IMG/VR virus record: IMGVR_UViG_2606217100_000004
Reading direction: 5' to 3' (one strand)
DNA length: 18,323 nucleotides
Source: a virus
Taxonomy: Duplodnaviria > Heunggongvirae > Uroviricota > Caudoviricetes
Numbering within the stretch: position 1 is the stretch's first letter; every line of letters begins with the position of its first letter. Below the pieces are notes generated by a model that did no database searches, had not been told where the DNA came from, and saw nothing but the letters and a program-made list of their open reading frames with translations. Below are positions 903-17,085 of this stretch, piece after piece. The translations under genes and the position numbers were made by a program.

Positions 903-1310
903 TTATTTTATTGATTTATTTTTACGCGCTTTAAGCATTTCTTCGAAGAGTTTGTTGAAGTTTTCTACTCTTGAGCGCATTTCAGACAGTAAGGCTTCCT
1001 GCTCGGAAGATGGAAGAGCATCGAATAATTCGATCAATTCTTTGTGGTTGGGAGTTAGCTCTGTTTCCACATGTAGTTCTTGTGCAGGCACTGGTGCCTT
1101 GTCTTCGTCACCAAACATTAGCCATGTAGGTGAGCACTTCAGAGCATCCGCTAAAGCAAACAATCGTTTTCCGACTGGCTGGGTTTCGTCTCTTTCCCAT
1201 TGTGAAATTGTGACGTGAGCAACTCCAGCGAGGCGCGCAGCTTCTCGTTGTGTTAAGCGTAATTCTTTTCGTCGCGCCAGAACTCGCTGGCCTAGGGTTC
1301 TTGTATCCAT
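903..1310 (-). CDS. dicA: DicA-like HTH (XRE-family) prophage repressor
   Basis: 135-aa ORF with an N-terminal HTH (LRLTQREAARLAGVAHVTISQWERDETQP) and a C-terminus (VENFNKLFEEMLKARK) closely resembling K-12 DicA as I recall it. Divergent from a Cro-like gene. Confidence 0.8.
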   Translation of the reverse strand: MDTRTLGQRVLARRKELRLTQREAARLAGVAHVTISQWERDETQPVGKRLFALADALKCSPTWLMFGDEDKAPVPAQELHVETELTPNHKELIELFDALPSSEQEALLSEMRSRVENFNKLFEEMLKARKNKSIK

Positions 1311-3109: not shown

Positions 3110-3511
3110 GTGGCAAAAGTTTTTACACAAGAAGAGCGGGAAAAAATTAAAGGGCAGGTGGTGGAACTCGTGCGCCAGAGCGGTCGTGAGACGTTACGGC
3201 AACTGGAAGCTAAAACAGGTGCGACTAGATATCTGATGAGCGTTCTTGCCAGAGAGCTGGTAGCCAGTGGCGATGTATACAACTCCGGCTACGGGTTATT
3301 CCCGTCTGAACAGGCGCGTAAGGACTGGCAAAACGCCCGCAAAAAACTCTCGAGGGCAAAGGTGAAGAAAACAGCTGTGGTTGATCCGGACCTTATCTGG
3401 TCGTTACCTGATGGAGAAATACGTCGCTACGACAGTCGCCTAAACATAATCTGTCGCGAGTGCCGGATGAGTGAAGTTATGCAGCGCATACTGGCATTTT
3501 ATCAGGGATAA
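3110..3511 (+). CDS. Hypothetical prophage protein with a possible HTH
   Basis: 133-aa ORF with a GTG start at 3110 and a strong SD (AAGGGGGAC) upstream. Composition matches the phage backbone, not the AT-rich retron. Confidence 0.5.
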   Translation: MAKVFTQEEREKIKGQVVELVRQSGRETLRQLEAKTGATRYLMSVLARELVASGDVYNSGYGLFPSEQARKDWQNARKKLSRAKVKKTAVVDPDLIWSLPDGEIRRYDSRLNIICRECRMSEVMQRILAFYQG

Positions 3512-3778
3512 TGTTAGGTATTTTAGACGTTACTAGATTAAAAAGCATTAGTTCAGGAGTGAATTGACATTCTCATTTTTCATGGCACAGGGTAGATCTG
3601 GCGTGGTTGTCCGCTTTGTGCCAGAGGCGGACGTTGTTAAAATAGAAAATATCCCAACCTTGTATGAGTCGTGCAATAATTTCGAACTTTATACAAAGCT
3701 TTGGTTGTAAAGGTGTATAACCACAAGTGACATTAATCACATTTGTAAAGGCAAAATGCAACAAACTGAATTAGTTAA

Positions 3779-3806
3779 TTGCGTAAATTTGAAGTTATGT
3801 TAAGGT
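3779..3806 (+). promoter_or_regulatory. Candidate retron promoter (-35 TTGCGT 3779-3784, 16-bp spacer, -10 TAAGGT 3801-3806)
   Basis: The hexamers place a transcription start at about 3813, coinciding with the first base of the a1 inverted repeat. Motif-level evidence only. Confidence 0.3.
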
Positions 3807-3812
3807 GGTGAT

Positions 3813-3945
3813 GGTTTATGGGCAGATTTTGGGTCGCGTTTCGCGATCAGTGAAAAAAATGTCCGATAGGATTGCCTTTCAGGATCTCATGTTCCTCGCA
3901 TTTCTTAAGGTTCTTGTCAAGTTTGCGTAAGAGTGCCCATAAACC
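3813..3945 (+). ncRNA. Candidate retron msr-msd (template for msDNA), bounded by a1/a2 inverted repeats
   Basis: Perfect 12-nt inverted repeat: GGTTTATGGGCA (3813-3824) and TGCCCATAAACC (3934-3945). A G follows a1 at 3825 (candidate branching G), and a2 ends 19 nt before the RT start codon. The 133-nt span is a plausible size for an msr-msd. Exact ends are not determined. Confidence 0.45.
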
Positions 3946-3964
3946 CTTTTAGAGGCGATCTAAA

Positions 3965-5800
3965 GTGAAACGACTACAATCATTAAAAGAAGCAAAAACA
4001 AAACCAGACTTGGCTAAGCTATTAGGAATCAAACCTTCAGCGTTAACATACTGCCTATATGTATTAAAACCTGAAAATCAATACACACAGTTTAAGATAC
4101 CAAAAAAAAATGGCGGCGAACGGATAATAAGTGCACCTAACGGAATATTAAAGACGATACAGTCATCCTTATCAGGACTGCTTCTAGATTGCTTAGACGA
4201 AATAGTTTGCATTAAGTTTCCAGACTCAGAGTTAGCAAGGCAGAAAGCAAAAAACTCAAAAATATTAAAGTTAAAATGTTCCAACTCAGAAATCAAACAA
4301 CCCTCACTGTCTCATGGATTTGAAAGAAAGCGTTCAATTATTACAAATGCAATGATGCATTTGGGGAAAAAATATGTTTTTAATATAGACTTGGATAATT
4401 TTTTCGGCAGTTTTAACTTTGGTAGAGTCCGAGGTTTTTTCATAAAAAATAGAAACTTTGCACTCGATCCGGAAATCGCAACTGTAATTGCTAAAATTGC
4501 GTGCTACAACAATGAACTACCCCAAGGCAGCCCATGCTCCCCAGTAATCACTAATCTAATCATTCACTCGTTAGACATTAAACTGGCAGCGATTGCATCA
4601 AGAAACTCATCCACTTTTACAAGATATGCTGATGATATTACATTCTCTACGAGGAAGGGGGCGTTTCCTTCTGCTATAGCAAAAAATCAAAATGGTAAAT
4701 ATATCGTTAGTAAGAAAATTAGGGGCGAGATAACTCGCTCAGGTTTTATAATTAATGATGGGAAGACAAGAAATCAGTATAAAGACTCGAGGCAAGATGT
4801 AACAGGCTTAGTGGTTAATAAAAAGCCAAACACGAAAAAAGAATATTGGAGGCTTGTGCGTGCGCAATGTGACCATTTATTTAAACATGGTGAGTTCTTA
4901 GAGGTGATTGACGGCAAGGAAATAAAGGGGAATGTTAATAGCCTTGCAGGCAAACTTAACTTCATAGACCAAGTTGACCACTATAATAGATTGCGTCAAG
5001 GCGAAAAATTAAATCCAAAATATCACTTAAAAAAAGATGCCAATAAAAATGGCCATGCCAAAAAAAGGCGTTACTTGCATAGTTCTAGAGAAAAAACGTT
5101 TAGTGAGTTTCTCTTCTATCGTTTATTTTATGGCAATGAATTACCAACAATTCTTACGGAAGGTAAAACTGACAATATTTATCTGAAGGCAGCAATACAT
5201 AAGTTAGCCTCATCATTCCCTAATTTGGCGGTAGCTGAAAGTCCAGGGCTCTCTTATAAGCCACGGACTAAATTTGTTAACTACAATGAGCGGACAAAAT
5301 ATTTACTTGAACTTTATGGTGGCGCTGATTATTTAAAGGATTTTGTTATTCATTATAAACAACACTTTAATCGTTATAAGGCTCCCAAACCATCTAATCC
5401 AGTAATTATACTTGTTGATAATGATAGCGGACCAAAAGATCTGATTAATTACGTTAGTAAAGTTGATAATATTGGTATTTTCCCCACAGGTGTTCCAGAT
5501 ATCCGCGCCTCTGAGTTTGTACATATTTTTTGTAATCTTTATTTAGTGCTTACCCCTCAAGTTAAGGGATATACAGGAACTGATATAGAGCATTTTTTTA
5601 AAGATGCAGATCGACTTAGACCACATAAAGGTAAGTTTTTCAATACAGTCTCTAAGCGTGATCATGATAATGATTTGAGCAAGGAATCTTTCGCAACTCA
5701 TATTGTTCATGCCCACAAGCATGAAATTGATTTTAGTGGATTTACAAGCCTGTTAGAACGGTTAGTAAAAGTCATAAATCACTTTGACACTGTTAAGTAA
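3965..5800 (+). CDS. Retron-type reverse transcriptase fused to a C-terminal TOPRIM-like domain (Retron-Eco2/Ec67-like)
   Basis: 611-aa ORF with a GTG start. RT motifs appear in order: NAMMH (NAxxH), NIDLDNFF, LPQGSPCSP, YADD (nt 4625-4636), VTGLVVN (VTG). The C-terminal part has TEGKTD (E codon 5159-5161) and VDNDSG (DxD), the TOPRIM E...DxD signature. The gene is strongly AT-rich compared with its flanks. Confidence 0.85.
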   Translation: MKRLQSLKEAKTKPDLAKLLGIKPSALTYCLYVLKPENQYTQFKIPKKNGGERIISAPNGILKTIQSSLSGLLLDCLDEIVCIKFPDSELARQKAKNSKILKLKCSNSEIKQPSLSHGFERKRSIITNAMMHLGKKYVFNIDLDNFFGSFNFGRVRGFFIKNRNFALDPEIATVIAKIACYNNELPQGSPCSPVITNLIIHSLDIKLAAIASRNSSTFTRYADDITFSTRKGAFPSAIAKNQNGKYIVSKKIRGEITRSGFIINDGKTRNQYKDSRQDVTGLVVNKKPNTKKEYWRLVRAQCDHLFKHGEFLEVIDGKEIKGNVNSLAGKLNFIDQVDHYNRLRQGEKLNPKYHLKKDANKNGHAKKRRYLHSSREKTFSEFLFYRLFYGNELPTILTEGKTDNIYLKAAIHKLASSFPNLAVAESPGLSYKPRTKFVNYNERTKYLLELYGGADYLKDFVIHYKQHFNRYKAPKPSNPVIILVDNDSGPKDLINYVSKVDNIGIFPTGVPDIRASEFVHIFCNLYLVLTPQVKGYTGTDIEHFFKDADRLRPHKGKFFNTVSKRDHDNDLSKESFATHIVHAHKHEIDFSGFTSLLERLVKVINHFDTVK

Positions 5801-6361
5801 TATTATGATGCGCACTGATTATTCCTTATTCAGCTAAAATTTCTACTGTAGTCCCAACTTCCGTTCCTCGCTCAAAGCGGACTAAAAGGTTAGCTTGTGT
5901 CGGACTTTGCGTATTAAAAGAAGTGCTGGTGGTGACTAGTGGTTGAGCCCCATTTCCACAGAAAAAATCAGAGAAACTATACCCAATAGTTGTATTGAAT
6001 CACTGACGAGACAGCCTCATATTCATCAGGACTGGTGTACGTCCAATACAGGAGGTTGTGGTGCTGGTTCTCAAATGTGCGCTGGCTATTACGGCTGTAA
6101 TGGCGATTTATTGTCTTGCTATTGTTCTTATGGATCGCCTTTCTGACTGATTTCATATTGGCGAGGTAACGGTAGTTAAGTAGAATGGCTGCGGGTGCTT
6201 GAGGCTATCTGCCTCGGGCATGAACACCAAAGGCAGATAGAGAAAAGCCCCAGTTAACATTACGCGTCCTGCAAGACGCTTAACATTAATCTGAGGCCAA
6301 TTTCATGCTAGACACATGTAGGTTAGCCTCTTACGTGCCGGAAGGCAAGGAGAAGCAGGCT

Positions 6362-6517
6362 ATGAAGCAGCAAAAGGCGATGTTAATCGCCCTGATCGTC
6401 ATCTGTTTAACCGTCATAGTGACGGCACTGGTAACGAGGAAAGACCTCTGCGAGGTACGAATCCGAACCGGCCAGACGGAGGTCGCTGTCTTCACAGCTT
6501 ACGAACCTGAGGAGTAA
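6362..6517 (+). CDS. hokD: Hok-family membrane toxin (HokD/RelF-like); in-frame upstream extension from 6305
   Basis: MKQQKAMLIALIVICLTVIVTALVTRKDLCEVRIRTGQTEVAVFTAYEPEE: a 51-aa single-TM Hok peptide with an AGGAGA SD upstream. A 3' fold-back hairpin and a terminator follow. Confidence 0.85.
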   Translation: MKQQKAMLIALIVICLTVIVTALVTRKDLCEVRIRTGQTEVAVFTAYEPEE

Positions 6518-10481: not shown

Positions 10482-10703
10482 GGTAATATTAAATCGGAAC
10501 ATTTACATCGCGGAATGTAAAATTTAAATAAAAAGGACTCTTCCATGAGCCAAAATTCCTGAAATCTTAAGGGTAAGATAAAAGGTCTTAATCAGAATGA
10601 CACGTTTTATTAATAAATAAAGCTATTCTTTCATTGCTGTGTTTTTCTTTACAAAAGTAATCCTTGCTATGGGTGGTTAATCATGCGTTAATGGTGTTCT
10701 GGT

Positions 10704-10740
10704 TTGTTACAAATTTATCTGAAGCAGTCATTGTTATAAT
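10704..10740 (+). promoter_or_regulatory. Candidate cspI promoter with extended -10 (TGtTATAAT at 10732-10740) and a roughly 100-nt AT-rich leader
   Basis: TGnTATAAT motif seen directly. A long AT-rich 5' UTR is typical of CspA-family cold-shock genes. Confidence 0.3.
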
Positions 10741-10843
10741 TTTATTATTTGTACCTCTTGAGATTTCCTTGTTGGTTTTTCTCTCTGATATTTTTTTTCG
10801 GACCATTCTGCCCAAGGGCTAATTTCTTCAAAAGGTAATAATT

Positions 10844-11056
10844 ATGTCTAACAAAATGACTGGTTTAGTGAAATGGTTTAACCCTGAAAAAGGTTTTGGT
10901 TTCATCACGCCGAAAGATGGCAGCAAAGATGTGTTTGTCCATTTCTCAGCAATTCAGAGCAACGATTTCAAAACATTAACTGAGAATCAGGAAGTTGAAT
11001 TTGGTATTGAGAACGGACCTAAAGGTCCTGCCGCTGTTCATGTAGTGGCGCTTTGA
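10844..11056 (+). CDS. cspI: CspA-family cold-shock protein
   Basis: 70 aa, [23 protein letters not shown]...VHFSAI: RNP1/RNP2 cold-shock domain motifs. Confidence 0.9.
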
Positions 11057-11260
11057 GGTAGACAATATTACAAACCATATTCACTTTAGATGCCCGTGTT
11101 GTCATGGTTCCCAGTATAGAACATCATCTTTTGATGTTTCTGACATGAATCCTTTCGGGGCAAAATGTATCTTTTGTAAATCAATGATGATTACATTTGA
11201 TAATATTTCACAATACTTAAATGCCAGCCGTCTGTCGTTGGATTTAAAAAAGTGAAAATG

Positions 11261-16510: not shown

Positions 16511-17085
16511 TGGCATTCAGAATGAGTGAACAACCACGGACCATAAAAATTTATAATCTGCTGGCCGGAACTAATGAATTTATTGGTGAAGGTGACGCAT
16601 ATATTCCGCCTCATACAGGTCTGCCAGCAAACAGTATCGATATTGCACCGCCAGATATTCCGGCAGGCTTCGTGGCTGTTTTCAACAGTGATGAGGCATC
16701 GTGGCATCTCGTTGAAGATCATCGGGGTAAAACGGTTTATGACGTGGCTTCCGGCGACGCGTTATTTATTTCTGAACTCGGTCCGTTACCGGAAAATGTT
16801 ACCTGGTTATCGCCGGGAGGGGAATATCAGAAGTGGAACGGCACAGCCTGGGTGAAGGATACGGAAGCAGAAAAACTGTTCCGGATCCGGGAGGCGGAAG
16901 AAACAAAAAACAGCCTGATGCAGGTAGCCAGTGAGCATATTGCGCCGCTTCAGGATGCTGCAGATCTGGAAATTGCAACGGAGGAAGAAATCTCGTTGCT
17001 GGAAGCATGGAAAAAGTATCGGGTATTGCTGAACCGTGTTGATACGTCAACTGCACAGGATATTGAATGGCCAGCACTGCCGTAG
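16510..17085 (+). CDS. tfaQ: Tail fibre assembly protein (Tfa)
   Basis: 191 aa; ATG overlaps the stf stop (ATAATGG), and the product resembles Tfa chaperones (…[14 protein letters not shown]…EWPALP). Confidence 0.8.

Follow-up and report, generated by a model that had tools for sequence, protein, structure and literature searches.

In type I-C retrons a Toprim domain is carried at the C-terminus of the reverse transcriptase (RT), with the signature EGxxD in motif IV and DxD in motif V, the latter being DxE in the I-C2 variant (Mestre et al. 2020, PMC7736814). Retron-Eco2 (Ec67; type I-C1; PDB 9I2F/9I2G/9S1F and 9LM3) from E. coli forms a trimeric complex caged by its multicopy single-stranded DNA (msDNA), which is activated by a phage nuclease (DenB/A1) and cleaves tRNA acceptor stems (PMC12916289). 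On its non-coding RNA (ncRNA), rG15 is the branch point, to which dT1 is joined (PMC12916289, PMC12405507), and termination occurs at rG52:dC67, beside the flipped U51 (PMC12916289); the msr holds one stem-loop, rG20-rU42, between single-stranded segments (PMC12405507). Here we analysed an 18,323-nt stretch of DNA (IMG/VR record IMGVR_UViG_2606217100_000004; hereafter the window), in which a first-pass annotation had proposed that a 12-nt inverted repeat, a1/a2, delimits a candidate msr-msd at 3813-3945. Our results argue strongly that this element is the msr-msd gene of a type I-C (Ec67/Eco2) retron, whose sole protein would be the RT-Toprim fusion encoded at 3965-5800 (Table 1). By the comparisons below, the ncRNA is homologous to that of Ec67 and structurally conserved, and it lies directly upstream of an intact RT-Toprim gene on the same strand; the two together represent a distinct lineage, with 42% protein identity to Ec67, an extra insertion and a different msd. 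Ec67/Eco2-type one-protein anti-phage retrons are known already, as is the RT gene, which is labelled in RefSeq; what is new is the unannotated ncRNA of an uncharacterised member. Current understanding of retrons is unchanged by this result, which is to be expected once the RT is recognised.

The protein encoded downstream of the repeat places the locus among Ec67-type retrons. Its open reading frame (ORF) contains a Pfam RVT_1 domain, matches the PADLOC model RT-Toprim_I-C over its full length (E = 2.7e-221) and scores 738.8 bits against the NCBIfam model NF038237 (retron_Ec67_fus), for which the cut-off is 450. Among solved structures, its closest relatives are chains of the ‘Retron Ec67 protein’ (9LM3 and 9I2F/9I2G/9S1F; E = 1.8e-137), and all of the best matches are retron RTs. 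Identity to the canonical Ec67 RT of E. coli 2012C-4502 (L024:4170-5927) is the 42% given above over the full length, and the two proteins share the same top PADLOC models as well as the same best NCBIfam model. Retron RTs typically combine a YADD motif with NAxxH and VTG. All of these are intact here and align with Ec67, as NAMMH, RYADD (YADD at residues 221-224, against 199-202 in Eco2) and RQDVTG, while the Toprim domain displays E399-G-K-T-D403 in motif IV and D485-N-D487 in motif V (D460/D462 in Eco2). The RT and Toprim motifs are conserved in the relatives described below. The I-C2 variant was considered and rejected: motif V reads DND, not DxE, in the window and in all relatives, which rules out this variant and leaves I-C1 or I-C3, the top PADLOC models matching those of Ec67 (I-C1). 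Every sequence-level feature of type I-C that we tested was found at this locus. In E. coli H6, H5 and other strains, RefSeq labels the identical gene ‘retron Ec67 family RNA-directed DNA polymerase/endonuclease’, and no RNA feature is present among the RefSeq annotations upstream of it. No paper on the RefSeq protein WP_032206437 was found in the literature, a search that did not cover the locus catalogue of Mestre et al. 2020.

Other retron types are more distant. The next closest RT domains are those of types XII (PADLOC RT-TIR_XII, 323 bits) and XI (RT-Protease_XI, 318 bits), which are likewise single-protein fusions of an RT to an effector; these, however, carry a C-terminal TIR or protease where the window protein has Toprim, and the full-length match is to I-C only. 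Consistent with this, the NCBIfam model Retron_TIR scores 279.9 on the window RT, below its cut-off of 600. Retron-Eco1 (Ec86, type II-A) has an homologous RT (E = 1.4e-28) and shares the a1/a2 repeat, the branching G and the use of msDNA as a sensor, but its separate effector protein, long msd hairpin and filaments do not apply to the window retron.

We then turned to the repeat itself. A repeat search recovered the two arms exactly as annotated, 12 nt long, 100% complementary and 109 nt apart, as the one perfect inverted repeat of at least 12 nt in 3500-4000. They lie in the 453-bp spacer (3512-3964) between the end of the upstream ORF at 3511 and the RT start, and a2 does end 19 nt ahead of the RT gene, as had been noted. 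The first-pass annotation also held that such a pair was improbable by chance, and this was upheld by 300 dinucleotide-preserving shuffles of the spacer, in which the longest perfect inverted repeat measured 7-11 nt, 11 nt being reached in 8/300 and 12 nt in 0/300. The chance of a 12-nt repeat in a single spacer is therefore roughly <1%. As this single-sequence estimate is suggestive, not decisive, the assignment of the repeat was decided by comparative evidence.

A scan of one genome per species revealed 22 loci encoding relatives of the RT-Toprim protein with 50-85% identity, of which 21 include the RT start and its upstream DNA; the repeat comparison covers these 21. The relatives derive from Yersinia, Klebsiella, Pantoea, Shewanella, Oceanimonas, Grimontia, Vibrio, Aliivibrio, Aeromonas, Colwellia, Marinobacter, Thalassolituus, a Bathymodiolus symbiont, Undibacterium and others, that is, from other Gammaproteobacteria plus one Undibacterium. 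In 21/21 loci, the counterpart of a1/a2 is longer than any other inverted repeat within 260 nt ahead of the RT gene; it occurs only directly upstream of the RT, in fixed orientation, and its distance to the start codon is kept at 17-31 nt. The arms change together: compared to GGTTTATGGGCA/TGCCCATAAACC in the window, both are altered in GGCTTATGGGCA/TGCCCATAAGCC, GGCCTATGGGCA/TGCCCATAGGCC and GGCTTATAGGCA/TGCCTATAAGCC.

These loci and the window were combined into an alignment of 22 sequences (A1), which does not include Ec67. RNAalifold predicted three helices on A1: a1/a2, a 7-bp msr stem-loop and a small hairpin inside the predicted msd template. By pair counting, the a1/a2 helix is 100% paired in 22/22 sequences, with both sides changed at 3 of its 12 pairs; of the six pairs tested in the msr stem, two show changes on both sides, and 96% of cells are paired. 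The covariation score was matched by 0/500 shuffles, and pairing dropped to 27-41% in slid controls. Mean pairwise identity is 85% across a1 and the msr, 38% in the msd body (3877-3922), which is the variable part of the family, and 86% across the template start and a2. This profile of a conserved msr and a variable msd is typical of retrons, and would be expected if recognition by the RT involves the msr and the priming site and leaves the msd body unconstrained.

Homology to the mapped Ec67/Eco2 ncRNA provides the second line of evidence. The Ec67 ncRNA sequence used for this comparison was verified: in 14 E. coli genomes it occurs with 100% identity beside an RT gene annotated as belonging to the Ec67 family. 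A covariance model built from A1 (R1), and so without Ec67, matches the Ec67 msr-msd end to end (L024:4001-4133, 50.5 bits, E = 9.7e-11) and aligns Ec67 G15 with window G3825. Around the branch, Ec67 reads GGCA-G15-AUUU and the window GGCA-G3825-AUUU; the msr stem-loop is present in both; the linker runs CAGUG...AAU51-G52 in Ec67 and CAGUG...AAU3860-G3861 in the window; and the template starts as GGAG-UGCC and AGAG-UGCC, respectively. Both the branch context GGCA-G-AUUU and the template start GAG-UGCC are invariant, and Ec67 has them too. The G directly after a1 had been put forward as the candidate for branching, a proposal strengthened by its invariance and by its alignment to rG15. Together, the homology to Ec67/Eco2 and the covariation in 21 related loci bear out the earlier suggestion that a1 and a2 are the ends of an msr-msd, as well as the orientation proposed for it and its association with the RT gene that follows.

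The canonical Ec67 locus itself is annotated in a way that conflicts with its known ncRNA. The RefSeq coding sequence of the Ec67 RT (NZ_CP027440.1, L024 3990-5930) starts 11 nt before the known msr-msd (4001-4132), the whole of which it then traverses; the annotated start of this RT is therefore ~60 codons too early.

Table 1 Features of the retron locus in the window.
Feature	Position	Strand	Description
Transferable cassette	3613-5882	+	~200 nt upstream leader, ncRNA gene, RT-Toprim gene, 82 nt downstream
Candidate sigma-70 promoter	3779-3806	+	TTGCGT (-35, 3779-3784), 16-nt spacer, TAAGGT (-10, 3801-3806)
a1, 5' arm	3813-3824	+	GGTTTATGGGCA; 12 nt; similarity to more distant relatives begins at 3810-3813 (DNA comparison)
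Predicted branching guanosine	3825	+	Invariant in 22 sequences; aligned by R1 to the mapped Ec67 branch point rG15; 2'-OH priming predicted
msr stem-loop	3832-3848	+	GGUCGCG/UUU/CGCGAUC, 7 bp; RNAalifold; counterpart of Eco2 rG20-rU42
Single-stranded linker	3849-3860	+	AGUGAAAAAAAU; equivalent to Eco2 ssRb; CAGUG invariant, A-rich tract conserved
Predicted msd template	3861-3932	+	Read from 3932 down to 3861; by analogy with Ec67 (template A118 to G52) via the R1 alignment
Small conserved RNA hairpin	3861-3872	+	GUCC/GAUA/GGAU; inside the predicted msd template
a2, 3' arm	3934-3945	+	TGCCCATAAACC; exact reverse complement of a1
RT-Toprim fusion	3965-5800	+	611 aa; GTG start; AGAGG Shine-Dalgarno at 3951-3955

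The alignment to Ec67 also allows the msDNA to be predicted. The linker aligns to Ec67 CAGUGGCCUUAAU, which ends with U51, a base that is flipped where msDNA synthesis terminates (PMC12916289). The predicted product is ~72 nt long, 5'-TCTTACGCAAACTTGACAAGAACCTTAAGAAATGCGAGGAACATGAGATCCTGAAAGGCAATCCTATCGGAC-3', and begins 5'-TCTTACGC..., which in the model is joined to G3825. Its predicted 5' end is secure to ~1 nt, because the branch context and the template start are invariant and common to Ec67.

The first-pass annotation had remarked that an internal msd stem was not obvious, and had suggested folding the RNA. In the minimum free energy (MFE) fold of 3811-3947 (-43.3 kcal/mol, z = -3.2), the a1/a2 and msr stems are closed and a strong msd hairpin was not found. 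With DNA parameters, neither the msDNAs predicted for the 22 loci nor the real one of Ec67 fold more stably than shuffles (mean z = -0.14), so the idea that a long msd stem is to be expected in this family was dropped. The absent stem is thus a property of the family and not a defect of the candidate, in agreement with the cryo-EM structure of Eco2, in which msDNA nt 29-50 do not form the proposed hairpin and instead pair between subunits in a three-way junction (PMC12916289). We also looked by eye for a conserved palindrome that could serve an Eco2-like three-way junction: the predicted msDNA of the window contains CTTGACAAG and CTTAAG, but neither is kept in Oceanimonas or Grimontia.

The locus would operate as follows. 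A single transcript would start at or near G3813 and run through the ncRNA into the RT gene, co-transcription being suggested by the conserved position of the promoter and the lack of a terminator in the 19-nt gap. Pairing of a1 with a2, for which the covariation argues, would bring G3825 beside the template start, and the RT would recognise the conserved msr part, namely its stem-loop and the CAGUG-A-rich linker. If the Ec67 alignment is a guide, the RT would prime from the 2'-OH of G3825 and copy from A3932 leftwards to ~G3861, yielding a branched RNA-DNA molecule with a 2'-5' linkage and ~72 nt of DNA. As in Eco2, this msDNA may hold RT-Toprim in an inactive oligomer in which the Toprim nuclease is caged; phage nucleases of the DenB or A1 type would degrade the msDNA and free Toprim, which would nick tRNA acceptor stems, stop translation and abort the infection.

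Several observations have to be set against reading the locus as an Ec67-type retron. An Rfam scan of 3400-4100 with E up to 10 returned no retron family, its three matches being at chance level (E = 2-4.7; unrelated snoRNA and sRNA families), and at gathering thresholds no retron family was matched in the whole window and no family at all in 3400-4100. The candidate promoter agrees with the consensus at 6/12 positions, below the threshold of a promoter scan, which did not report it. Compared to the Ec67 RT, the window protein has a 26-aa insertion at 4217-4294 (RT residues ~85-110), between Ec67 residues 90 and 91, and the stretch aligned to the trimer-contact loop of Eco2 (Eco2 residues 325-347) is poorly conserved and holds a 4-residue insertion. 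The 3' end of the predicted msDNA is uncertain by ~5 nt, since alignment posterior probabilities there are only 0.5-0.7.

The first two of these points can be weighed directly. The annotation had called for a covariance-model search: R1, built here, finds the mapped Ec67 msr-msd, while curated Rfam, which contains a retron msr model, gives no retron match. The missing Rfam match reflects the diversity of retron ncRNAs and is not evidence against a retron. Likewise, the proposed TTGCGT-16-TAAGGT promoter starting transcription at a1 stands as a motif in a conserved position, but not as a strong match. In 18/21 relatives, a TTGnnn-16/17-TAnnnT promoter with its -10 ending 6-7 nt ahead of a1 is among the top two candidates, the strong ones including TTGTCA-17-TAGAAT and TTGAAT-17-TAGAAT, and Ec67 has a weaker TGGAAA-17-TATGTT that lies equally far from its known msr 5' end. 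This conservation of position among relatives and Ec67 makes the predicted promoter credible, though weak, and, since similarity to distant relatives also begins there, a transcription start at or near G3813 is a reasonable inference.

The leader upstream of the promoter has features of its own. A CRP-like palindrome at 3726-3741, AGTGA-CATTAA-TCACA, lies ~80 nt upstream of the predicted start and matches the CRP core consensus, TGTGA-N6-TCACA, at 9/10 positions. It appears as CGTGA-TATTAA-TCACA in both Yersinia loci, and is the sole match in the window, where 0.66 would be expected by chance. A short ORF at 3564-3710 (plus strand) crosses the left cassette boundary at 3613; over its C-terminal ~30 codons, the peptide is conserved with that of an ORF of 32 codons preceding the retron in Yersinia similis (PEADVVKIENIPTLYE... 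versus SEADVVKVKNTLPLYK...). The ORF may be what is left of a gene that once neighboured the retron ancestrally, or may encode a small leader peptide.

The points concerning the protein bear on how far the Eco2 analogy extends. Like Eco2, the locus combines a single RT-Toprim fusion carrying YADD, EGKTD and DND with a same-strand ncRNA directly upstream, in which a1/a2, GGCA-G-AUUU, one msr stem-loop, the CAGUG linker and GAG-UGCC recur in the same arrangement; in both, the msDNA lacks a stable hairpin and the retron is prophage-borne. In contrast to Eco2, however, protein identity reaches only 42%, the protein has 611 aa against 586, a1/a2 is 12 bp against ~13-14, the predicted msDNA has ~72 nt where that of Eco2 has 67, no sequence relationship links the msd bodies and the stretch corresponding to the trimer-contact loop is divergent. 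The insertion is kept across the window subfamily: it measures 26-33 aa (33 aa in the Vibrio/Colwellia branch), ends in the conserved KQPSLSHGF and was seen in all full-length relatives that were inspected, the frame of the Klebsiella sp. WOUb02 relative (L006) being truncated within it. Because of this insertion and the divergent trimer-contact stretch, the oligomeric state and trigger specificity may differ from those of Eco2. Adding the ~72-nt msDNA with its fast-evolving body, it is conceivable, if doubtful, that the clade of 611-619-aa proteins forms a functionally distinct branch of type I-C, which would assemble unlike the Eco2 trimer or sense another phage trigger, and whose expression may be regulated via the conserved leader with its CRP-like palindrome.

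Within an Ec67-type retron, the processing points could still differ from those predicted, with priming at another G or an msDNA whose length departs widely from 72 nt in either direction. Only the alignment places the 3' end, with the posterior probabilities given above, the hairpin at 3861-3872 and its Ec67 counterpart differ in their position with respect to the termination point, and the subfamily insertion may lie near the finger subdomain, which is implicated in Eco2 termination (PMC12916289). The invariant GGCA-G-AUUU and GAG-UGCC, however, fix the msDNA 5' end, and we consider such a departure unlikely.

With regard to its genomic setting, the window is a cryptic lambdoid prophage of E. 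coli, Qin-like in kind, in which a truncated rspA (1-766) is joined directly to a DicA-like repressor gene (903-1310, minus strand), with genes of the Cro/CI type and the YdaT family next; the retron is separated from this immunity region by a hypothetical gene and one of the DUF977 family, and hokD/sok, rem, ydfU, a Q-like antiterminator and lysis genes lie downstream of it. Compared to E. coli H6, the window lacks rspB and, from the Qin-like prophage, the genes for integrase, excisionase and exonuclease. The retron was found in 19/5,426 complete E. coli genomes, where it is 99.5-100% conserved, has an identical ncRNA and occupies two prophage contexts, the match beginning at window 3613 in at least 9 of the 19. 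In E. coli EC7 (L025 6001-8270), the same 2,270 bp recur with 99.5% identity and an identical ncRNA at the end of a different prophage, beside pinE and pao genes, and similarity to EC7 stops sharply at both ends of the cassette. The near-identical unit in two prophages and its sharp ends indicate that the retron is a 2.27-kb cargo cassette that has moved between prophages. Beyond the shared right end, 82 nt after the RT stop, the next genes differ: the window has hokD/sok, and EC7 a LysR-family gene that is truncated. There is no conserved accessory gene, as expected for a single-protein type I-C system. Unlike these lambdoid Qin-like or pinE-type prophages, the one carrying canonical Ec67 is P2-like, with the retron between a DinI-like gene and the portal gene.

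The ncRNA and RT could instead be a non-functional passenger of a cryptic prophage, a decayed retron producing no msDNA and giving no defence. The degraded state of the host prophage, with its truncated and fused rspA and missing int and xis, would fit such decay, as would the weak promoter and the Klebsiella relative with its interrupted RT frame. This account is nonetheless very improbable: the 611-aa frame is intact with every catalytic motif kept, the cassette and its ncRNA are preserved across the 19 genomes and both prophage contexts, and the a1/a2 and msr pairs are maintained by compensatory change across the family.

In the Klebsiella locus (RT start 3001), the RT frame stops after 118 aa and tblastn similarity runs on to the gene end, which suggests a frameshift, probably reflecting a recently inactivated retron or a sequencing error; its upstream ncRNA, including a1/a2, is intact.

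That the arms are instead terminal inverted repeats of an element resembling a miniature inverted-repeat transposable element (MITE), a protein-binding palindrome or an RT-regulating leader structure is hardly credible: terminal repeats would also co-vary, 133 bp is a MITE-like size and the a1/a2 stem does sit in the 5' leader of the RT mRNA, but the a1-to-a2 element is single-copy in the window by an R1 search, which scores 128.8 bits on the plus strand against only 20 bits on the minus strand, its position and orientation relative to the RT are fixed in 21/21 species, and its interior has the conserved-msr, variable-msd profile and is homologous to the biochemically mapped Ec67 msr-msd.

Read as the msr-msd of a type I-C retron, the element gives precise limits, validated by comparison, for the parts of an E. 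coli type I-C ncRNA (a1, branching G, msr stem-loop, template start and a2) where annotation marks the RT gene only, so that the system can be cloned directly for experiments on msDNA, defence or editing. A second comparator, 42% identical, is thereby supplied for the recently solved Eco2 mechanism. The 22-locus alignment and covariance model distinguish what is constrained in this family (a1/a2, msr and template start) from what is free (the msd body), and the cassette, present in two prophages that are unrelated, exemplifies the movement of single-gene retrons as prophage cargo.

Elsewhere in the window, Rfam revealed three RNAs above gathering score: the sok antitoxin RNA overlapping the hokD leader (6193-6367, 117 bits), a cspA-type thermoregulator 5' UTR ahead of a cold-shock gene (10698-11083, 113 bits) and IS009 RNA (16853-17051, 221 bits).

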